Of a DNA stretch of 64,000 bases, positions 14,813 through 43,745 are shown one piece after another; within the stretch, counting starts at the first letter, position 1; every line of letters starts with the position of its first letter. The stretch is from Massalongia carnosa (lineage: Eukaryota), in assembly GCA_965645245.1 (NCBI GenBank), contig OZ287069.1:806001-870000 (forward strand), written 5' to 3'. The position numbers were made by a program, and so were the translations under genes. The notes below the pieces were generated by a model that was not told where the DNA came from, did no database searches, and saw only the letters and a list, made by a program, of their open reading frames with translations.

Positions 14813-15640
14813 GCTATCGGGAAGAGATGACGGCGTCAAGGCATAAGCCAGAGAAGTGGGTTCGTCGTCTTAGGATGGACGAGGCTAAATTAAAATATTT
14901 TTTCATGCAGTTTGAAGGGCGGGGGAGAAGGTTAACCGGGTTATCGGGTTTGGGTTTGCATTATGAGGAGTCTTCTGGACCGAGTAGCCTGGACCGAACA
15001 GAGTAGAGTAGTTTGAATCTGTATAGAGCGCTCTATATTCTGTATTCTGTACTCTGTACTCTGTAACTGCCGAGAACGAATCGCTACTAACGAATTCAAA
15101 CGACAGCACGCAGATAACTGGCCACCGCAGGGGGGCAGACGAGTTATTCCATCATGTTTAGCGAAGGGACATGAAAGGGGGAAGGGGGAAGGAGAAGAAA
15201 GTCGACTTGACGACGAAAAGTTGATTGATAGATGGATGGATAGGTTGGCACTCTGTTGGAGAGTCGCTTGATCTGACCTGCGCATGACATGACGCATGCA
15301 TAGTTATATCAATATACACCACTCCCTTTCACCCATATTCCACATTAGCCCATACAGCTTGATAAGAACTCAATGACTAGATAATCGAATAGAGAGCTGA
15401 TTGATTAGTTCATGGAACATCTATACGTACAAGCGTATGTATAAGGCGTCTGGAGTTATTTACAATCAGAAGATTCGAACATCCTCCAGTAAGTCCTTGC
15501 TTCTGGGAGCCATAAAATTAGAATGATGTCTGTTTATAGATGAGATGGTTCTATGTCACGTGAGGCCCCTGAGTCAAAGTAAATTAAGAATCACCCTCTG
15601 AAAATTCTTTCCTCATCCACTTCTTCTCACTCGGCCTCAT

Positions 15641-15779
15641 CCATCTCACTGACTCGTCGTCGACCCCACGTTGTCTCGGTGCCCCTACCTCGCTGTCAGT
15701 GCTTGCTGCTTTTCCCATCTCACTGACTCGTCGTCGACCTCACGTTGTCCTCGGTGCCCCTACCTCGCTGTCGGTGCTT
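15641..15779 (+). repeat. Tandem duplication of a ~64-bp unit in the retroelement 5' leader (15641-15704 and 15715-15779)
   Basis: CCATCTCACTGACTCGTCGTCGAC...CTACCTCGCTGTC[A/G]GTGCTT occurs twice, with 2 substitutions and a 1-nt indel. Confidence 0.95.
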
Positions 15780-15786
15780 TTTCCCA

Positions 15787-16800
15787 ATGACGAACACCCG
15801 TTCCCAAAGCACCCCGATGGACGACATAGTCCCCGACTCCCAGGAGATTGTCGGATTGACGCAGGCCCAGTCCAATCAAATCTTCGCCCTACAAAAGAAG
15901 AAAGCCGAGGCAGAAGCGAAGGCGGCCGAGGCTGAGGCCAGAATTGCCGAGTCCAAGGCATTGGTCGCCGAGAAGGAGGTGGAAAAAATGCAGCTAGAAA
16001 TCGACTGCATGCGCCGAGAATCTGACGCCCGAATAGCGGCCGTCATTCCTGCTGGCAAGCCGAGTCGTGTCGTCGGCGATGACGACGAGGACCTAGGTGA
16101 GATCCCTCTCGAAGTAAGAAGTATAGCACCCCGTTTCGCGGGCCTACCACAGGACGAGATCATCAAGATCTTTTCAAATAAATTCAAAGCCATCAACCTC
16201 TCCCGCCTCCGACACATGCACGGCATGCAATACGAGTCCTACAAGGATCAGGACCGCATCGGCATCGAAGACGGCGCCTTGAGGTTGAGAAAGGCATCCG
16301 GGACCTACAAAGATTTCGGAAAGACAGTTCATGACGTCTGGACCGAGAGCTTCATCAACTACACCTCGATCATGGTCAGTCTTTTCGGGAAATCGAGTCA
16401 ACAGCTTCACGCCACCATGTCGGCATTCCACGGAAAAATCCTCACGCTGGCCAAGGTGTACGAGTGGCAGGAAGCAGTCCTCCCCCTCGCCATCGAAACC
16501 CACACTCACATCATCGCGTCTCAGCCATCCGACGCATCCCAATGGAAAATGCCCGACGAATTCCAAGCTCGATTCTGCACCCCCCTCACAGTCCTACGCC
16601 GTCGCCGCTCACGATCCCCGCCGTCCCGGCGACCGACCCCGAGAGGAGACAGGGCCGATAGGGCCGAGAAGGCAGCGGGGGAAATCTGCGACAAGTACAA
16701 CAGCGGCACCTGCACCTGGCCGTCGTGCTACCGACAGCACAAATGTAAATCGTGCGGCGCGGCTGGGCATGGCCAGAAGACATGCCCAACGAAGAAATAG
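15787..16800 (+). CDS. Gag-like protein of the YR retrotransposon (337 aa)
   Basis: N-terminal coiled coil (KKKAEAEAKAAEAEARIAE), Arg/Ser/Pro-rich tract, C-terminal tandem zinc fingers C-x7-C-x4-C-x3-H and C-x2-C-x4-H-x4-C; first ATG at 15787. Confidence 0.85.
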   Translation: MTNTRSQSTPMDDIVPDSQEIVGLTQAQSNQIFALQKKKAEAEAKAAEAEARIAESKALVAEKEVEKMQLEIDCMRRESDARIAAVIPAGKPSRVVGDDDEDLGEIPLEVRSIAPRFAGLPQDEIIKIFSNKFKAINLSRLRHMHGMQYESYKDQDRIGIEDGALRLRKASGTYKDFGKTVHDVWTESFINYTSIMVSLFGKSSQQLHATMSAFHGKILTLAKVYEWQEAVLPLAIETHTHIIASQPSDASQWKMPDEFQARFCTPLTVLRRRRSRSPPSRRPTPRGDRADRAEKAAGEICDKYNSGTCTWPSCYRQHKCKSCGAAGHGQKTCPTKK

Positions 16801-16845
16801 GGGGTTGGTGCAGGAGGCAGTAGAATAGCTTCAATAGCTGAATTC

Positions 16846-18549
16846 ATGACGTCCCATCCCTGCTTACCTGCACCAATCAGACCAAATACAATCCCTTCGT
16901 TTCAACTCGTAGACGCATCTCGTCAGCGTTTGAAAGACAGCCCATCTCCCCTCGTACCGTCCGCATGGGCAACTCTACTTCAAGAGTATCCGGGCCCCCT
17001 CCGAGTCCATCTGCCCATGATCCTTCGTTTCGGAGTACAAATCGGATACGAAGGCCCCACAGACATCCTTCGGATCGAAAAAAATCTGACATCAGCGAAT
17101 GAGGACCCGGAAACGATCGAGAATAAGCTCCAAGAGGACCTCAGGAAGGGCCGAGTCAGACGAATAGCCGCCCCGAGTCAGCCATTTGTGGCCTCCCCCC
17201 TCGGCTTGGTCCCGAAACATGACGGAGGATGGCGACGCATTCATCATCTGTCTCATCCCAATCAAACATCAGTCAACGACAACATTCCAGAAGAGGCATC
17301 CAAATTACAATACGCCAGACTCGACGACATTATTCAATTGATTCTGTCAGAGGGCAAAGGTGCTGTCATAGTGAAAAGAGACGTCAAAGACGCCTTTCGA
17401 AACGTTCCCGTCGCACCTCATCATCAATGGCTTCTGGGTTTCGGATGGAATGACGAATTCTACACCGAGACATGCCTTTCGTTCGGACTGTCGACGGCCC
17501 CGTTCATCTTCAATCTTTTTGCGGAAGGCTTTCATTGGATTTTGGAATCCTTTCTACAATGGAGATTACATCACTATCTAGACGACTTCGTTGCAATTTT
17601 CCCATCCGAGACATCGTCAGAACGATTGCACCAAGAAACAAAAGCCTACAACATTCTCACCGACATTCTTGGCATCCCGAGAAACGACTCAAAAGACGCC
17701 GAGGGAACGACAGCGACAGTCTTCGGACTCGAGGTCGACACCATCAACAGTCTTATTCGTCTGCCAGCGGACAAGCTGGAAAAAGCGAGAATCATCACTA
17801 CAAAGGCACTAAACGAGACGACAATCAGCCTCGGCGACATGCAGTCAATAGCGGGCTTCCTAAGCTTCTGCGCACAGGCAGTCAAATTGGGCCGAGTCTT
17901 CTTACGATTATTCTGGAATTTTATAGCCTCATTTCCCTCGGGCAGTCATCGTCGGGTCAAAAGAAGAATTCCCACATGGGTCAGACAGGATCTCATCTGG
18001 TGGAACAAACTTCTAGTGGACTTCAACGGTATTGTCTTCTTCGAGACGTCAACACGAGACACGATCAAGGTGCATACGGATGCATGCCTCACGGGTCTCG
18101 GAGGCTATTTTCAACAAGACAACGAGCTCGTGAATCAAAAAAACGCATGTAGGGCCCGAGTCCTAGTCCTCAATCAGGAAGGATCACCGAGCATAAACGT
18201 CCGAGAAGTCGAAGCTATCCTTCTAATCCTTCAGAAATGGGCGCCGACATGGCGACATCGACAGATCCTTGTCTTTACCGACAGCAACACAGCATACACA
18301 GGATTCACGAATCTAACCCTCAAGGGACCGGCCAACGCGCCTCTACGAGAAATACTGTCCATAGCTGCAAAGTGGGACATCGTACTACGTTGTCAATGGA
18401 TCAGTGGCACTTCCAATGGACTAGCAGATGCCCTGTCACGTTTTGATGATGAAAGATTGGCTAACTTTTGCCCTCATTGGCAGAACCCATACAATTCGAT
18501 GAACCTCCCTCCACCTACCTATCCTCCACACCAGGGTCAGCCCTGGTAA
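16846..18549 (+). CDS. Reverse transcriptase + RNase H (DIRS/Ngaro type); open frame extends back to the gag stop
   Basis: SPLGLVPK, DVKDAFR, LSFGLSTAPFIF, YLDDF; RNase H TDAC, INVREVEA, FTDS, NGLADALSR. Confidence 0.95.
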   Translation: MTSHPCLPAPIRPNTIPSFQLVDASRQRLKDSPSPLVPSAWATLLQEYPGPLRVHLPMILRFGVQIGYEGPTDILRIEKNLTSANEDPETIENKLQEDLRKGRVRRIAAPSQPFVASPLGLVPKHDGGWRRIHHLSHPNQTSVNDNIPEEASKLQYARLDDIIQLILSEGKGAVIVKRDVKDAFRNVPVAPHHQWLLGFGWNDEFYTETCLSFGLSTAPFIFNLFAEGFHWILESFLQWRLHHYLDDFVAIFPSETSSERLHQETKAYNILTDILGIPRNDSKDAEGTTATVFGLEVDTINSLIRLPADKLEKARIITTKALNETTISLGDMQSIAGFLSFCAQAVKLGRVFLRLFWNFIASFPSGSHRRVKRRIPTWVRQDLIWWNKLLVDFNGIVFFETSTRDTIKVHTDACLTGLGGYFQQDNELVNQKNACRARVLVLNQEGSPSINVREVEAILLILQKWAPTWRHRQILVFTDSNTAYTGFTNLTLKGPANAPLREILSIAAKWDIVLRCQWISGTSNGLADALSRFDDERLANFCPHWQNPYNSMNLPPPTYPPHQGQPW

Positions 18550-19631
18550 AACGTCTCGTCTGGCACGGACACTCGGCGGACACGAGAAAAGGGTACGGGA
18601 CGGCGATCGACTCATACGAGGCATTCTGCGCGACGACGGGACGCACGTCGTGGCCTGCAACAACCGAGTCCCTCGAGGAATGGCTAGCCGGTCGACTATA
18701 CGGGGGCGGCACACCCAAGCAGGGAAAGATAAAACCAGAGACGGCAGCGAGCTACCTCGCCGGCCTCAGATCATACCATGTAGACCGAGGATACGGCCTC
18801 ACCCCATTCGAGGGGCCGAGACTTCAATTGATGCTGAAAGGGGGAAAAAGGATCTTTTCTCAGACAAAAAGAAGACGCCTACCCATTTCAAAAGAATTAC
18901 TGACAAAAATCACCAGTATTCCCGCTCATTCGGCCGAAGACCTCAACATCGACGCGACATTCAAAGTTGCATGGGCAGGGTTCCTCAGACTCGGGGAAAT
19001 CACCTACACTGTCGCTGATCGTAAGAAGACATCTTTTCAGAGATTGAAACCTACACGAGGTGACATCTCATTCGCCGAGAACGATCAATACGCGACATTA
19101 CGTCTCAAAAGAAGCAAAACAGACACAAATCACTCAGGAGTTCAGATAGTGCTGGCAGCGACCAATGAGAGCACTTGCCCCGTGACAGCACTACGGCGTC
19201 TTTTCAGAAATGATCCTCAGCCATCTACATCCCCGCTTTTTCGTCTCGGCACCGCATTCACCAGAGCCTCCGTCATAGCATCCCTGAAAAAGAGACTGAT
19301 AGCCGTCGGCATCAACGACTCGGCATACTCGGGACACAGCTTCAGAAAAGGAGCAGCACAACACGCCGCCGACCACGGGATGCTGGATGAGAGTATTCAG
19401 AGACTCGGAAGATGGTCATCAAACGCGTTTCAGCTATACTTTCAGACGTCCCAGGCCTCACTATTCAATTTGAACCTCAGTTTTCAAAAAGGCATCCCTC
19501 TAGCAGTCCCACGTGCTGTCGTCGCCGAGACGAATCCTACAAACTCCTACCCCTACTCAATTGGGCATTCCATTGGGCGTACAGGTCAACCAGGGCATCG
19601 ATCCGGAGCGCCGCCGGGCACCTCCATCTAG
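18468..19631 (+). CDS. Tyrosine recombinase (Cre/lambda-integrase fold) of the retroelement; no N-terminal ATG
   Basis: Core-binding domain (TRKGYGTAIDSYEAFC, TAASYLAGLRSYH) and complete catalytic set FLRLGE, KRSKTD, GHSFRKG, LGRW, FQLY; overlaps the RT ORF by 82 nt in the -1 frame. Confidence 0.95.
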   Translation: MPSLAEPIQFDEPPSTYLSSTPGSALVKRLVWHGHSADTRKGYGTAIDSYEAFCATTGRTSWPATTESLEEWLAGRLYGGGTPKQGKIKPETAASYLAGLRSYHVDRGYGLTPFEGPRLQLMLKGGKRIFSQTKRRRLPISKELLTKITSIPAHSAEDLNIDATFKVAWAGFLRLGEITYTVADRKKTSFQRLKPTRGDISFAENDQYATLRLKRSKTDTNHSGVQIVLAATNESTCPVTALRRLFRNDPQPSTSPLFRLGTAFTRASVIASLKKRLIAVGINDSAYSGHSFRKGAAQHAADHGMLDESIQRLGRWSSNAFQLYFQTSQASLFNLNLSFQKGIPLAVPRAVVAETNPTNSYPYSIGHSIGRTGQPGHRSGAPPGTSI

Positions 19632-19887
19632 ATCATCGCCGTCGGGCACTGCCGTCGGGCATCATCTATCGGATCGTTGAGCGTCAGCAGACGCCTCGGG
19701 CCTAGAAGATGAGGTTCTCACCTCAGCACCGACCCCGAGTCACGTGCCTAGGCCTGCCCGGGCTGACCTGTGTCGTTCCCATGCCCAATCAAATTCAAGC
19801 ATTCAAATCAATTCATCCAATTAAAAGCCCCCCCAGCGCAAGCGAAGGTAACGGCACCGATAAGGGTCATAGAAATATATTCTCTTC

Positions 19888-22022
19888 GCGAAGGTACCCC
19901 CCCCTCGCACTAGTAATTAGCTGCTTTGCATTAGTAATCAGAACATCAAAATTTTGTTTACCTTTTTAACCCCAAGCATCACCATTCTCAACCTCACGAA
20001 CTGATTTAATTGCTCATCAATTACTGTGATTATCATCTCATATTTAATTGCAAAACATGGGACTAAATGAAGAAGAGCTTCCTAGTGTTTCAGATAAATC
20101 TCCTATCTTAGCAAAGCAGCACAAAATCAATAGCAAGCGCACCGTCGAAAGCATTTTGGCCAATATTCCACCTCCCTCCCCCAATTACACTTCCGTGTCA
20201 GTTGATGACAGACCCCCTAATCACTGGCTAAAGGCCTTGCTGATTCACCTCTTGAATTGTTTCAACTGTTCATTTCAGCTCAGCACTGTCGCACCATCGC
20301 GTATCATACCAATAACAAGGCACACGACTATATAAAGCAGGAGAAGGAGAATAATCATCGCGCATGGAATGACGTTATTAGGCCTGAGATCGAGGTGTTT
20401 CTAGGCATTCTTTTGTTTATGGTCTTGTATCATGCGCCTTCGGAGAGCGACTATTGGAATACATGTTCTGATAAGCCTGTTTTCGTGTCTATTCAGGAGG
20501 CTATGTCTCTGAATCGATTTGAAAATATCAAACGATTCTTGAAAATAAACAACGGACGTACAGAGCCTTCAGACATGGGCAAAGGACCTGATTGGTGGAA
20601 GAAATTTGGAGCCGCTTGCTACTGATTTTCAAACGGCTTCGTTGAAATATTATCAACCAGGAAGCATTGTTTCAGTTGATGAGCAATTGATTAAGTTCAA
20701 AGGTCGATCACGTCATACTTTGCAAATAGCTTCCAAGCATGCCTGCAAAGGGTTTAAAATATATAGTCTTTGTCAGAATAATTATTTGATATCGTTCCTA
20801 TTTGCCTCCAGAATTACCAAAATCAGTCAATTAAAAACCGCCAGACAGCTAGGATTTCTGATCAAACATGGCCTTTCTAATAGTGCTTTGGTGGTAACTC
20901 AGCTCTGTCAAACACTTCCCGAACCACTGAACTATGTTCTTTTTTGCGACAACTTCTTTACCAGCACAAAGCTATTCAAAGCTCTTCGATCAATAGGAAT
21001 TGCCGCCTGTGGAACAGCCAAGAAAGACTGGATTTCCCTCGGAGTTGCTAGCCCTGAGAGATGTGGCCACAAAAGCGAAACACTGGGGCCTTCGTACCAG
21101 TACGACTGTCGATGATGAAGTGCTTTGTTTAGGCTGGGTGGATAACAATACTGTTCAGCTTATGACTACGTTCCATGACCCTCGAGAGCTTGATCGTTCA
21201 TACTATTTACATCCTTTCAAAGACATGGAATTCCAGAAGGCTCGGTTGAACCGATTATATCCTATTATCCATCAATTCATGCACACACCACTTTGCTGCC
21301 TGATCAAACGCCTTTATGGCCTTTAGGATTACCGGTTCCTGTTCCCATCAGAGAATACAATCTTCACATGGGAGGTTCAGATGAAAATGCTCAGCAAAGA
21401 GCAACTTATTCATATGAACGCCGAAGTGATCGTTATTGGTGCCTTTGTTTATTTTTTGGTTAGATGCTGCTGCGTTAAATGCATACAAGCTCTATCTGTT
21501 GAACAACTCCGAAACAACGGAAAAATTCCTCGATCGTGCTGACTTTATTCGTCATCTTTCTCTTCATCTTCTGAGAAATCCGCTGGTCAAAGACGACGAT
21601 ATGAGCCTCAAACAAGCGTTCAAACCACAACTGATTGTTTTGTCAGTCCTCCTGAGCATCATTACATTCATTTGAACAAAAAACAACGATGTGTGCATTG
21701 CAATGTCAATAAAATAAGACCTTCCAAGCGAAAGAGGGAACCACTGACTGAAAGAGACGCTAATGGAAACAAAAGAAAGCGACGAGGTGCTCAGACAAAG
21801 TAGGCATGTGGAGGATGTCATCCGATTAAGCCTTGCTGTAAAAATCAGGACTGCTGGCAAGCAATTCATATGAATTGAAAGGGGTGAATGGAATATATGT
21901 AAATAGTAATTGATTGGACACTCTGGCAAATAGGGGTAGCAACATCTAGACTTGATTGGTCAATATTTAAGTTTCGGGAGGTGTAGACCATTACAGTTAG
22001 TGCGAGGGGGTGGTGCCTTCGC
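19888..22022 (+). mobile_element. Decayed piggyBac-like DNA transposon with 25-bp terminal inverted repeats
   Basis: GCGAAGGTACCCCCCCCTCGCACTA (19888-19912) matches the reverse complement of 21998-22022 at 23/25; encloses transposase fragments. Confidence 0.8.
20057..21878 (+). pseudogene. piggyBac (DDE_Tnp_1_7-like) transposase pseudogene with multiple frameshifts and stops
   Basis: EIEVFLGILLFM, MSLNRFENIKRFL, VSVDEQLIKFKGRS, LFCDNFFTS, ACGTA, WVDNNTV, YNLHMGGSD and C-terminal CxxC...CxxC..C..C motifs spread over at least 4 frames. Confidence 0.88.
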
Positions 22023-22235: not shown

Positions 22236-24246
22236 ATGGAATCATTCGAAGGCATACACCTAGAACTCTCACAACAACCCGGCAAGTGCAAAATAATCGA
22301 GAGCGGACTGGGTTGGAAACCTTCGGGTAGTGGTGATACTTTCACACTTGATGGGAACAATATTGGAGGCGCGCAATGGAGTCGTGCTGCCAAAGGTTTT
22401 GAGTTAAAAATCCTCTCAAGAACGTCGGGAGTTATACAGTTAGATGGATTTGACGCCGAAGTGAGTGGCCTACAACACGGTGCATGAAGGATACAACTGA
22501 TATCAATAGGACCAAGACCGAGTCAGTAAAGCCTTTAAGCTCTTTTACGGAATTAACATTGAAAACAAAGAGCATGCATTACGGGGCTGGAATTGGGGAA
22601 AGGCCGAGTTTGGGAAGGCCGAGCTTGCATTTAACGTCCAGAATCGACCAGCATTCGAAATCCCCTATTCCGAAATCTCGAATACCAACGTTGCGGGGAA
22701 GAATGAGGTAGCGGTCGAGTTCTCGCTACTAGCGGGTGGAAGTGAAACTGGAACCAATGGCCATCTAGGTGGGGCCCGGAGTCGAGGGCACAAGGCCGGC
22801 GCGGCGAAGGACCAGTTGGTAGAGATGAGATTTTACATTCCAGGGACTGCTGCAAGGAGGGAAAAGGGCGAGGATGGGGACGACAAGAGCCCCGAAGGGT
22901 CAGATGTAGAAGAACAGAGCGCCGCCAACTTGTTCTATGAGACACTCATGGATAAAGCTGAGATTGGCGAGGTCGCGGGAGACACCTTTGCAACTTTTCC
23001 TGACGTCCTCCATCTTACTCCAAGGTTGGCACTTCTGGCACACCTTCCAAAAGAAATGAATAACATATTCCAGAGGACGGTTTGCTGTTGATATGTACGA
23101 AAGCTCGTTTCGATTGCGTGGCAAAACGTACGATTATAAGATTCAATATGAACACATCAAAAAGTTTATGGTCCTTCCGAAACCCGACGAACTTCATACC
23201 CTAATTACAATTGGTCTCGACCCTCCCCTTCGTCAAGGACAGACCAGATACCCTTTCCTAGTAATGCAATTCAAGAGGGAGGAGGAGGTTAGCATTGACC
23301 TAAACATGACTGAGTAGGTTGGAAAAAAGCTGAGGATTGTGGACGCGACTAACAAGGGTTTAGAGAACTTTTGGAGGAAAAGTACAAGGGCAAACTAGTG
23401 CCTCACTACGAGTCACCGCAGCACCATGTGGTTGCTCAAGTATTCCATGGTCTCGCTGGCAAGAAAGTTCTTAAGCCCTCCAAGGATTTCGCTAGGTACC
23501 TTATTTTTTATGTGAGCAACTCGAAAAAAATGCTAACAGTCACAGCCATCATCAACAATACGGGGTCAAGTGTAGCATCAAAGCTAACGAGGGGCATCTC
23601 TTCTGCCTTGATAAGAGCTTTATGTTTGTACCAAAGCCAGCAACATATATTGCCTTTGATAATATATCAGTCATTGTGATGTCGAGAGTAGGTGGCGCCA
23701 TATCCGCAAGCCGTACTTTTGATATTACAATCACAACGAAAGGAGGAGGGCCTGAGCATCAGTTCAGCAACATTAACCGGTAAGTCATTTTAGTGCTCGC
23801 AACCCGATAATACTGAATCTAGTAGTGAGGAACAAAAGCCTCTAGAAGAATTTTTTCAGGCAAAAGGGTTGAAGGCCAAAAATGAGATGCTCGATGACGT
23901 AAATATTCACTCTACAAAATCCAAAAGATATGATTTGCTAACCAAATACTAGTCGAGCGCTCTCATCGCCGCTGCTCTTAAAGACGCAGACATGGCCTCT
24001 TCGGACGAGGAAGTAGTTGCAGCTCGCGCCGACCGCGGATCCGCCGATGAAGATGAGGAGAGCGTTGACGAGGATTTCCGCACAGACTCCGAGTCAGACG
24101 TCGCGGAGGAGTACGATTCGGCGCACGAGAGCAGCGGAGGGTCCGACGAGGAGATGGCGGATGGAGGTGGAGATGCGGATGCAGCCGGAGACTCGGATCC
24201 TCCGGCCGATGAGCGGCCGAAGAAGAAGGCTAAGACCGCGAAATAG
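22236..24246 (+). CDS. POB3: FACT complex subunit Pob3/SSRP1, multi-exon
   Basis: GLGWKP, LRGWNWG, VEMRFYIPG, LTPRGRF, GLDPPLRQGQTRYPFLVMQF, VKCSIKANEG and an acidic tail ending PKKKAK. Confidence 0.95.
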
Positions 24247-41527: not shown

Positions 41528-43745
41528 ATGCCTGGCGAAACCTTTGAGTTTCAAGCTGAGATCTCTCAGCTCCTCTCACTTATCATTAACACTGTCTATT
41601 CCAATAAGGAAATCTTCCTTCGAGAAATTATTTCCAACTCTTCAGACGCTCTCGACAAAATTCGATATGAAGCTCTATCGGACCCGAGCAAGCTTGATTC
41701 TGGCAAAGACCTTCGCATTGACATCATCCCAGATAAAGCCAACAAGACACTCACTATCCGCGACACTGGTATTGGTATGACCAAAACTGTAAGTTGATTA
41801 TTGTAGGTGGATCGTTTGTATGAGCTAACAAAACTAGGAACTTGTTAATAACCTGGGCACAATCGCCCGCTCTGGTACGAAACAATTCATGGAGGCTCTC
41901 ACCGCTGGTGCAGATATCTCCATGATTGGGCAATTCGGTGTTGGCTTCTACTCCGCTTACCTTGTTGCCGATAAGGTGACCGTCATCTCAAAGCACAATG
42001 ATGATGAGCAGTACATCTGGGAGTCAAGCGCTGGTGGTACCTTCACTCTACAACAAGATGAGGAAGGTGAACAGCTCGGCCGTGGTACCAAGATTATCCT
42101 TTATCTTAAGGACGAGCAGACCGATTACTTGAATGAGAGCAAAATTAAAGAGGTTGTCAAAAAGCACTCTGAATTCATCTCTTATCCAATCTACCTGCAC
42201 GTGCTAAAGGAGACTGAGAAAGACGTGCCTGATGATGATGCGGAAGAGGTCGAGGATGAGGACGAAGAGAAGAAGGCCAAGATTGAGGAAGTAGATGATG
42301 AGGATGAGGGAAAAGATAAGAAGAAGAAGACTAAGAAGGTCAAAGAGAGTAAGATTGAAGAGGAAGAGCTCAACAAGACGAAGCCCATTTGGACTAGGAA
42401 TCCTTCGGACATCACCGCGGAGGAGTATGGTGCTTTTTACAAATCCCTCTCAAAGTATGTTTGCCTTGTACAACCCGGAGACCGCCGAAGCTAACAATAT
42501 TCTAGTGATTGGGAAGACCACCTAGCGGTCAAGCATTTCTCTGTTGAAGGACAACTTGAATTCCGCGCAATCCTCTTCGTTCCCAAGCGCGCCCCCTTTG
42601 ATCTGTTCGAAACTAAAAAGACCAAGAATAACATTAAGCTTTACGTGCGCCGTGTCTTCATCACTGACGATGCAACTGACCTTATTCCGGAATGGCTTAG
42701 TTTCGTCAAGGGAGTTGTCGATTCCGAAGATCTGCCTCTTAACTTGTCACGTGAGACTCTCCAACAGAACAAGATAATGAAAGTCATTAAAAAGAACATC
42801 GTTAAGAAGACTCTTGAGCTATTCAATGAAATCGCTGAGGATCGCGAGCAATTCGACAAGTTTTACGCCGCGTTCAGCAAGAACATTAAGCTTGGCATCC
42901 ATGAAGACTCGCAGAACCGCCAATCTCTTGCCAAGCTACTCCGTTTCAACTCCACAAAGTCTGGGGATGAAACCACGTCACTAACTGACTATATCACCCG
43001 CATGCCCGAGCACCAGAAGAACATGTATTACATCACAGGTGAATCTCTCAAGGCCGTTCAAAAGTCACCCTTCTTGGATTCGCTCAAAGAGAAGGGATTC
43101 GAGGTTCTATTCTTGGTTGACCCCATCGACGAATATGCCATGACTCAACTCAAGGAGTTTGAGGGCAAGAAACTCGTAGATATCACCAAAGACTTTGAGC
43201 TTGAGGAGACCGAGGATGAGAAGAAGACCCGCGAAGCCGAGGAGAAGGAATTTGAGGAATTGGCTAAGGCATTAAAGAATGTTCTTGGTGACAAAGTGGA
43301 GAAGGTGGTCGTAAGCCACAAGCTTGTGGGTTCTCCTTGTGCCATTCGTACCGGCCAGTTTGGTTGGTCAGCCAACATGGAGCGCATCATGAAAGCGCAA
43401 GCTCTGCGTGACACTTCGATGAGTTCGTACATGTCGTCCAAGAAGACCTTTGAGATTTCACCGAAGTCGCCGATCATCAAGGAGCTCAAGAAAAAGGTCG
43501 AGGCTGACGGCGAGAATGACCGCACCGTCAAGTCGATCACCCAACTGTTGTTCGAAACTTCTTTGTTGGTCTCCGGATTCACCATTGACGAACCAGCCGC
43601 TTTTGCAGAGCGTATTCATAAGCTCATTTCCTTGGGCTTGAACGTTGACGAAGAGGCTGAGACTAGCGAGGAGAAGGCACAAGAGGATGCCGCGGCTCCT
43701 GCTGAAGCAGCTGCAGTGGAGAGTGCGATGGAGGAGGTTGACTAA
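41528..43745 (+). CDS. HSP90: Heat shock protein 90; 3 coding exons plus a probable 5' UTR intron (41352-41504)
   Basis: [43 protein letters not shown] and C-terminal MEEVD. Confidence 0.99.

Follow-up and report, generated by a model that had tools for sequence, protein, structure and literature searches.

How does a retrotransposon make its recombinase when the recombinase frame opens without a nearby start codon and out of frame with the gene before it? The question is raised by an intact Ngaro-like tyrosine-recombinase (YR) retrotransposon in 64,000 nt of Massalongia carnosa DNA (contig OZ287069.1 of assembly GCA_965645245.1, positions 806,001 to 870,000; this whole stretch is called the window), in which a gag open reading frame (ORF) is followed, after an in-frame TAG, by a reverse transcriptase (RT)/RNase H ORF and by a YR frame that is -1 relative to RT. 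The YR frame is open for 388 codons (18465-19631) and its first Met is codon 123, leaving 122 codons without ATG, much as a first reading of the letters alone (the sequence-only reading) had noted. That reading predicted that the recombinase is translated from a spliced mRNA joining the N-terminal part of gag (GagN) to YR. The comparative evidence set out here supports the prediction, and we put the probability that the recombinase of this element would be made from such a GagN-YR mRNA at about 0.75. The putative splice signals are present and compatible in phase, and their nucleotides are conserved in many diverged relatives.

The proposed signals (Table 1) lie where the sequence-only reading had placed them, and all of its letter-level claims could be reproduced. 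In gag, CTAG/GTGAGA (a slash marks a proposed splice point) directly follows ...VVGDDDEDL, is in phase 1 and has 16097 as the first intron base. At the 5' edge of the YR frame, a branch-site-like GCTAAC, whose TAA opens the frame, is followed by a pyrimidine-rich tract and a CAG that is phase 1 for YR. Excision of 16097-18483 gives ...DDDEDL-E-PIQFDEPP..., a single frame of 485 codons, of which 103 come from gag and 381 from YR, with one codon across the junction. The RT and YR frames overlap by 82 nt in the window, and, again as had been claimed, an X XXY YYZ heptamer read in the RT frame is absent from that overlap.

Table 1. Positions in the window of the retrotransposon, its reading frames and the splice signals proposed for it.
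Feature	Position	Strand	Details
Whole Ngaro-like YR retrotransposon	15536..19873	+	~4.34 kb; contigs of other runs diverge at 15536 and 19873/19874, with differing flanks
5' untranslated region (UTR) tandem direct repeat	15641..15779	+	copies 15641-15704 and 15715-15779, period 74-75 nt
gag ORF	15787..16800	+	337 codons plus TAG; no Pfam match; tblastn locates gag in 13 related loci
Exon 1, coding part (proposed)	15787..16096	+	103 gag codons and the first base (G) of the junction codon
5' splice site (proposed), TAG/GTGAGA, phase 1	16094..16102	+	is the gag Gly-Glu codon pair GGT GAG
Intron (proposed), 2387 nt	16097..18483	+	C-terminal two thirds of gag, gag stop, nearly all of RT/RNase H
gag TAG stop, candidate readthrough site	16798..16800	+	in frame with the RT ORF; frame analysis
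RT/RNase H ORF	16801..18549	+	582 codons plus stop, same frame as gag; Pfam
Branch-site-like GCTAAC	18460..18465	+	TAA 18462-18464 opens the YR frame; RT frame reads Ala-Asn
Pyrimidine-rich tract and 3' splice site (proposed)	18466..18483	+	tract TTTTGCCCTCATTGG 18466-18480; CAG/ 18481-18483
Exon 2 (proposed)	18484..19631	+	last two junction-codon bases, 381 YR codons and stop; homologues, Cre-like fold of relative P0164
3' untranslated region	19632..19873	+	sequence and contig borders

Conservation of the 3' signals was followed in 79 loci, which a 20-protein YR alignment picked out of metagenome contigs and which are 28-72% identical to the first query sequence. With the three proteins of the window as tblastn queries, 62 RT/YR junctions were located, window included, and the YR frame relative to RT was -1 in 55 of these, +1 in four and 0 in three. 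Twenty junctions were dropped by eye as duplicates, broken copies or unclear (L004, L016, L022, L030, L031, L038, L039, L043, L044, L048, L049, L050, L052, L054, L056, L057, L061, L065, L069 and L070), and the other 42 were clustered at 80% nucleotide identity into 35 lineages. A CTRAY motif (NCTRAY) stands at the stop that opens the YR frame in 31 of the 35 lineages; of the remaining four, L023 and L024 have CTAAC a few bases further on and L036 and L042 are built differently. When the RT frame is aligned from the S-R motif at the end of RNase H, the same number, 31 of 35, read x6-(I/L/V)-(A/T/V/F)-(N/D). The codon before N/D is GCT in 24 lineages, ACT in five, GTT in one and TTT in one, so that its third base is T in all 31 and in every one of the 30 four-fold degenerate codons; in these elements GCT makes up 0.27 of Ala codons. 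The N/D codon itself is AAC in 16 lineages, AAT in seven, GAC in six and GAT in two. Synonymous sites are otherwise saturated here, since the adjacent Ile/Leu/Val, Cys, Pro and His codons show every synonym in the same codon table. This invariant synonymous T argues against the possibility, raised beforehand, that CTAAC merely reflects a constraint on RT residues.

The acceptor is conserved to a similar degree. A phase-compatible YAG, with the next base as position 2 of a YR codon, is found 13, 16 or 19 nt past the frame-opening stop in 34 of the 35 lineages, which disposes of the objection that homologues might lack it; the trinucleotide is CAG in 33 lineages (in one of them at 55 nt) and TAG in two, and CAG makes up 0.41 of Gln codons in these elements. 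The residue at the junction varies (E, G, D or V), the first base of its codon is always G, and conservation in the YR frame (F-D/N-x-P-P) starts within about 8 codons past the acceptor. By comparison, the RT-frame tail after CPHWQ varies in both sequence and length, with RT/YR overlaps of 28-664 nt.

On the donor side, the gag region homologous to 16085-16110 could be compared in 10 loci of seven lineages, where it reads GGT GAG in nine and GGT ACG in one (L017). The GT is in phase 1 in all 10, and the flanking codons differ freely. L008 carries G/GTGAGG at the same kind of place in gag. GGT accounts for 0.23 of the Gly codons and GAG for 0.45 of the Glu codons of these elements, which puts the chance of GGT in eight lineages at ~8e-6 and that of GAG in the seven lineages with Glu at ~4e-3. 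In the distant relatives L051, L053 and L057 a single phase-1 G/GTATG or G/GTACG lies between the helical N-terminal part and the gag core; these three donors weigh less because they were found by motif search, their gag being too diverged for tblastn. Both sites are visible in 12 loci, window included, and all 12 have a phase-1 G/GT donor in gag (G/GTGAG in nine) such that excision of the 2369-2594 nt from donor to acceptor yields one continuous GagN-YR frame. The conserved acceptor pattern and phase-1 gag donor that the sequence-only reading had asked for in homologues are therefore present. The continuous fused frame is obtained also in L023, in which YR is +1 relative to RT, so the phase relation between donor and acceptor is kept where the frame relation between RT and YR is not. 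The common -1 relation, in turn, follows from the phase-1 acceptor being itself a CAG codon of the RT frame.

Joined GagN-YR frames also occur among the 120 best YR matches and 150 best representatives. Most of these YR ORFs begin at an arbitrary NTG just past the frame-opening stop and few carry another N-terminus; in three, P0164, P0229 and P0022, a gag-like coiled coil is joined to YR in one ORF. P0164 (324 aa) reads ...RRPTADEDDE-G-LLLFNPPAAFHAW, and P0078, an ordinary ORF of the same family, reads VPPLA-G-LLLFNPPAAFHAW. Two unspliced relatives of P0164 of the type ...LA-G-LL(L/R/H)FN.. (L001 and L013) have CAG/GG or CAG/AG exactly at the P0164 junction codon. P0229 (255 aa), from a single Logan contig of 9926 nt, reads ...LEAEAEVAAEERIA...KIDLMMQKTEATISAGG...APKEDDLA-E-LQLGEPPFDYLSS, and its N-terminal part matches residues 66-85 of the window gag. 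P0022 (375 aa), from a Logan contig of 11084 nt, has a coiled-coil-like acidic N-terminus, ...GLDEDDIL, joined to G-YQTAIDSYE. The joints of P0229 and P0022 are contiguous within the assembled contigs. A search with residues 1-105 of P0229 returned only P0229 itself, tblastn of the fused N-termini against the fetched loci gave no matching gag, and no lead for P0229 in the ESM Atlas reached 0.9. The AlphaFold (AF2) model of P0164 has one long helix at 2-45 (pLDDT above 90), a low-confidence disordered linker over the acidic stretch and the junction, and a two-domain fold. In the Protein Data Bank (PDB) this fold is closest to Cre recombinase (E 5.8e-8, probability 1.00), with XerD and lambda integrase next. 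A predicted complex of two copies of Gag 1-103 scored 0.02, which gives it no support and is no evidence either way.

The claim that the element signals follow the pattern of host introns in the window held in part. Thirteen candidate host introns were tried, and the six verified by frame joining are 49-53 nt long, with donors GTAAGT, GTATGT, GTGAGT, GTAGGT, GTAAGA or GTAAGC and a branch-like CTAAC, CTAAT or CTGAT 5-8 nt before YAG. The motifs of the proposed element intron are of this kind; its length and branch-site spacing, which are taken up below, are not. A de novo intron scan of the window was too noisy to use, and an intron motif scan of the window gave 65 matches against a shuffle mean of 118, that is, no enrichment; it is the relatives, and not the window alone, that lift the splice signals above chance. 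Two of the verified introns, 41789-41837 and 42455-42505, lie in an Hsp90 gene (PF00183), and another, 22461-22509, in an SSRP1/Pob3-like gene (PF03531; 22461-23088 region).

Several observations weigh against splicing as the route to the recombinase. At 2387 nt the proposed intron is about 45 times as long as the host introns, and its CTAAC stands 15 nt before CAG, compared with 5-8 nt in the host. The 3' signals fall within conserved RT residues, A-N/D-x-C/F-P-H/Q-W/F-Q, and the donor within a conserved gag G-E; because of this overlap, only the synonymous sites argue for constraint at the RNA level. The chances given above for the donor codons are naive figures, for lineages that share descent. 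Among the fused ORFs, the junction of P0229 could be placed two residues (LA) apart, that of P0022 lies some 40 codons deeper in YR (the window has AAAAG/GG at that point, a phase-1 AG and thus a possible second acceptor), and the GT...AG at the parental junctions of all three is putative. P0229 and P0022 stand on contigs of ~10 kb and are thus probably DNA, either copies of spliced RNA or deletion derivatives. The family of the window element gave no fused ORF in a search with residues 1-110 of the window gag, which returned two matches, both plain gag, and no spliced copy was seen among the 16 loci (of the 79) whose frame upstream of YR was translated. Six sequencing runs contain the element, all of unlisted kind and none on record as RNA. 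The 16096/18484 joint does not occur in the contigs of runs X1, X2, X3 and X6, contigs being unable to show its absence, and one X3 contig runs unspliced across the acceptor, from 16316 to 18553. That contig ends at 16316 in GTGGTATCAACGCAGAGTAC, which we take to be part of a template-switch cDNA adaptor; X3 would then be a cDNA library and the element transcribed, unspliced over 16316-18553.

It is possible to read the same locus as a case of programmed -1 frameshifting, in which a slip within the RT/YR overlap yields a Gag-RT-YR polyprotein and conserved residues of RT and gag give rise to the splice-like motifs as a by-product. The -1 relation at 55 of the 62 junctions is what this would predict, and in more distant relatives one frame spans gag-RT-YR or RT-YR (P0175, 1252 aa; P0198, 1222 aa; P0252; P0061). 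Same-frame as well as shifted YR is also reported in the accessible text of Muszewska 2013 (PMC3783388) and, together with these relatives, indicates that a polyprotein route exists in the wider group; low-level frameshifting in the window element is likewise possible. However, this account is unlikely for the YR of the window element. Beyond the window, whose overlap has no canonical heptamer, one occurs anywhere in the overlap in only two of the 35 lineages and at different places, which is not the pattern of a frameshift site, and the overlap ranges widely in length, with an unconserved RT tail. The -1 relation follows geometrically from the phase-1 acceptor, and where it is lost splice signals can still be kept: YR is +1 in the families of L023, L039, L043 and L061 and 0, with stops between, in L022, L024 and L030, yet L023, L024 and L039 still keep CTAAC...TAG and L023 and L039 keep the phase-1 donor. 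Nor does frameshifting account for the frozen synonymous sites or for ORFs in which GagN is fused to YR.

Translation of YR alone, starting at the second codon of the frame, an NTG (TTG 18468 in the window), by way of an internal transcript start, leaky scanning or internal entry, would agree with the gene callers, which begin most homologues at an NTG codon, and an ATG does stand in the few codons before the acceptor in five of the 35 lineages. This seems less probable again, as the codon may be ATG, GTG, TTG or not NTG at all, set by the third base of a variable RT codon, as 25 of the 35 lineages have no Met in the first 40 codons, and as the NTG would lie ~2.7 kb from the 5' end behind many AUGs. 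Neither an ATG nor a slippery heptamer is thus a conserved property of the YR start, either of which had been named beforehand as a sign against splicing. Least probable of all is that the splice match is coincidental, with the fused ORFs being internal-deletion derivatives and this copy making no recombinase but relying on YR supplied in trans. The contig data without spliced RNA, the probable DNA nature of the contigs of P0229 and P0022 and the existence of an ORF-less derivative of the window element (with a 15716-to-19574 joint in X2 and X3) would all be in keeping with it. Nevertheless, the YR frame is intact over its 388 codons and its nearest database relatives are 99% identical in a 54-member cluster, three separate signals show conservation of their nucleotides and match in phase in all 12 loci, which is unexpected by chance, and it is improbable that three deletions would end independently at one and the same codon.

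Under splicing, the preferred reading, the intact multi-copy element of a basidiomycete-type host would put one full-length transcript to three uses. Unspliced, it would be translated into Gag, ending at TAG 16798, and occasional readthrough of this in-frame TAG would give Gag-RT/RNase H. In a fraction of the transcripts, G/GTGAGA (16096/16097) would be joined to the CAG/ acceptor (18483/18484), with CTAAC 18461-18465 as branch site and 2387 nt removed, and the spliced mRNA would encode a 485-aa protein consisting of Gag 1-103 (helical, then acidic), the junction Glu and the whole tyrosine recombinase. Fusion to GagN by splicing would spare the recombinase a start codon of its own or a frameshift, and its amount may be set by how inefficiently the long intron leaves. 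Three parts of this scheme are inferred: splicing in this organism, readthrough as the source of Gag-RT, and the shared Gag N-terminus as the means by which YR reaches the particle or the cDNA. A broader proposal, which we consider slightly favoured, is that an intron of ~2.4 kb, reaching from gag to the last RNase H codons, is an ancient conserved feature of fungal Ngaro elements; that YR is made only as a Gag N-helix fusion and is thereby tethered to Gag assemblies; that A-N-x-C-P-H-W-Q is largely the protein shadow of branch site, tract and acceptor; and that the spliced RNAs themselves undergo reverse transcription and insertion and so give rise to RT-less GagN-YR elements, of the kind that may lie behind P0229 and P0022.

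Readthrough would fit the single in-frame stop that separates gag from a long RT frame of the same phase in 11 of 13 loci. The contexts of this stop are stop then CAA TTx or CAA in L014, L016, L023 and L026 and in L003 and L020 (for example TAG CAA TTC, TAG CAA TTA, TAA CAA TCC and TGA CAA CAA), and TAG GGG GTT in the window; the CAA contexts resemble the CAR-YYA readthrough context of plant viruses.

The assignment of the element as Ngaro-like rests on its lacking a methyltransferase, a protease and a DDE integrase and on its gene order, gag, RT/RNase H, YR, on one strand. Gag has a charged, helical N-terminal part and the acidic run DDDEDL, together with a conserved core and, towards the C-terminus, a Cys/His knuckle. 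The RT ORF is of the Ty3/gypsy-related type, with matches to RVT_1 (E 1.7e-12) and RT_RNaseH (E 1.6e-4; 22.2 bits, under the 24.8 cut-off) and an ADALSR motif at the end of RNase H. These are the only two Pfam matches in its 582 codons, and by Pfam neither gag nor the RT ORF has a protease or integrase domain, YR standing in place of a DDE integrase. The ~10 codons between the ADALSRF motif and the YR frame leave no methyltransferase after RNase H, the domain whose absence separates Ngaro from DIRS1-like elements. The window YR matches Phage_integrase weakly (E 5.4e-3); among 20 aligned YR relatives nine match Phage_integrase and five match SAM_1, and the FLRxGE, HSFRxG and W...Y columns of the alignment are near-invariant. 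The YR frame has 339 database relatives at E up to 1e-3, and a PDB sequence search with profile A1 gave no match.

Goodwin and Poulter are said to have given the original description of Ngaro in 2004. The split direct repeats of Ngaro elements, A1...B1-A2-B2, were not convincingly found in the window copy: its ends share no repeat of at least 20 nt and, by blastn-short, only 7-9-mers, and the best local alignment of the ends (15537-15576 with 19703-19742) has a score of 28, which is marginal against a shuffled 95th percentile of 27. In other respects the element resembles the Ngaro of Basidiomycota described by Muszewska 2013 (PMC3783388), namely in the order gag, RT/RNase H, YR, the shifted YR frame, the fungal hosts, the absence of protease, DDE integrase and methyltransferase, and the head-to-tail copies of relatives. 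The accessible text of that paper calls the shifted YR 'frameshifted', gives no mechanism and mentions neither intron nor splicing, in contrast to the conserved intron proposed here. DIRS-1 of Dictyostelium and DIRS1-like elements, in the accessible text of PMC3266345 and PMC7192593, are likewise YR retrotransposons with overlapping ORFs and unexplained YR expression, and differ from the window element in their order gag, YR, RT/RNase H/methyltransferase and in their inverted repeats and internal complementary region (ICR). In PMC7192593 the word 'spliced' refers, in the accessible text, to an artificial reporter intron only. Natural splicing of a YR element does not appear in the accessible text of PMC3783388, PMC3266345, PMC7192593, PMC8547959, PMC13465315, PMC4157794 or PMC6681497; no published description of it was found, an intron being something that Goodwin and Poulter 2004 or Poulter and Butler 2015 might mention.

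Closer parallels to the proposal come from other retroelements. In murine leukaemia virus the splice donor lies in the leader and env has an AUG of its own. From one transcript this virus obtains Gag where translation terminates, Gag-Pol where an in-frame UAG is read through, and a third product when the RNA is spliced to a subgenomic mRNA (accessible text of PMC5778647), which is the arrangement proposed here. The window element would differ in that its donor lies inside gag, giving a GagN fusion, and in that the gene spliced in encodes the integration enzyme and not an envelope. Among long terminal repeat (LTR) retrotransposons, spliced subgenomic RNAs are made by Drosophila copia, barley BARE and pea Ogre. 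In Arabidopsis, Ty1/copia elements adjust the ratio of their proteins by splicing a share of their genomic RNA (accessible text of PMC5580714), as is proposed here. The introns of these LTR elements either take out pol, so that more Gag is made, or connect gag with pol, unlike the GagN-YR fusion. We know of no LTR-element intron that fuses the N-terminus of Gag to an integrase or recombinase, and of none in a YR element.

What would be new is therefore a splicing device in a tyrosine-recombinase retrotransposon, with a putative donor inside gag that would deliver the integration enzyme as a Gag-N fusion. The accessible literature on DIRS, Ngaro, PAT and VIPER leaves the route of YR expression open, describing shifted or overlapping frames without a mechanism. 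If the proposal is true, a conserved intron would settle recombinase expression for fungal Ngaro elements, which would become a third class of retroelement with partial splicing, beside retroviruses/pararetroviruses and some LTR elements, and the first case of an integration enzyme delivered as a Gag-N fusion. Annotation would change, as YR ORFs now called from arbitrary TTG or GTG starts would gain a defined N-terminus, and the RT-less GagN-YR copies in genomes would be explained. It would also be an instance of coding sequence doubling as splice signals.

Some further features of the element and its surroundings were recorded. The element is ~4.34 kb long and multi-copy elsewhere, since contigs of other sequencing runs leave the window sequence with differing flanks; within the 64-kb window it is single-copy. 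Because the pentamer ATAGA stands both at 15536-15540 and at 19869-19873, either border of the element is uncertain by 5 nt; the recombinase may use this pentamer as its crossover core. In the 5' UTR, immediately ahead of the gag ATG, the repeat unit is ~65 nt long, its two copies are 95-97% alike, and one contig of run X6 is without 17 nt in this region (15641-15779). A second donor-like site, GAA/GTAAGA at 16111-16119, lies 17 nt past the proposed donor in phase 0 and is phase-incompatible with the acceptor; L003 has GAA/GTATGC at the matching gag codons. In L016, L018, L040 and L070 elements stand head to tail, the YR frame being followed by the gag/RT of the next copy within ~0.6-1.8 kb. 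In the contigs of runs X2 and X3 that join 15716 to 19574, 54 other letters stand between, and the resulting short derivative of ~0.5 kb keeps both element ends (15536-15716 and 19574-19873). Finally, a decayed piggyBac-like DNA transposon (19888-22022) starts 14 nt past the 3' end of the Ngaro-like element, with inverted repeats of 25 nt that are 92% complementary (19888-19912 and 21998-22022) and pieces of DDE_Tnp_1_7 in different frames at 20221-20622 (E 4.9e-17) and 20549-21112 (E 7.4e-20).

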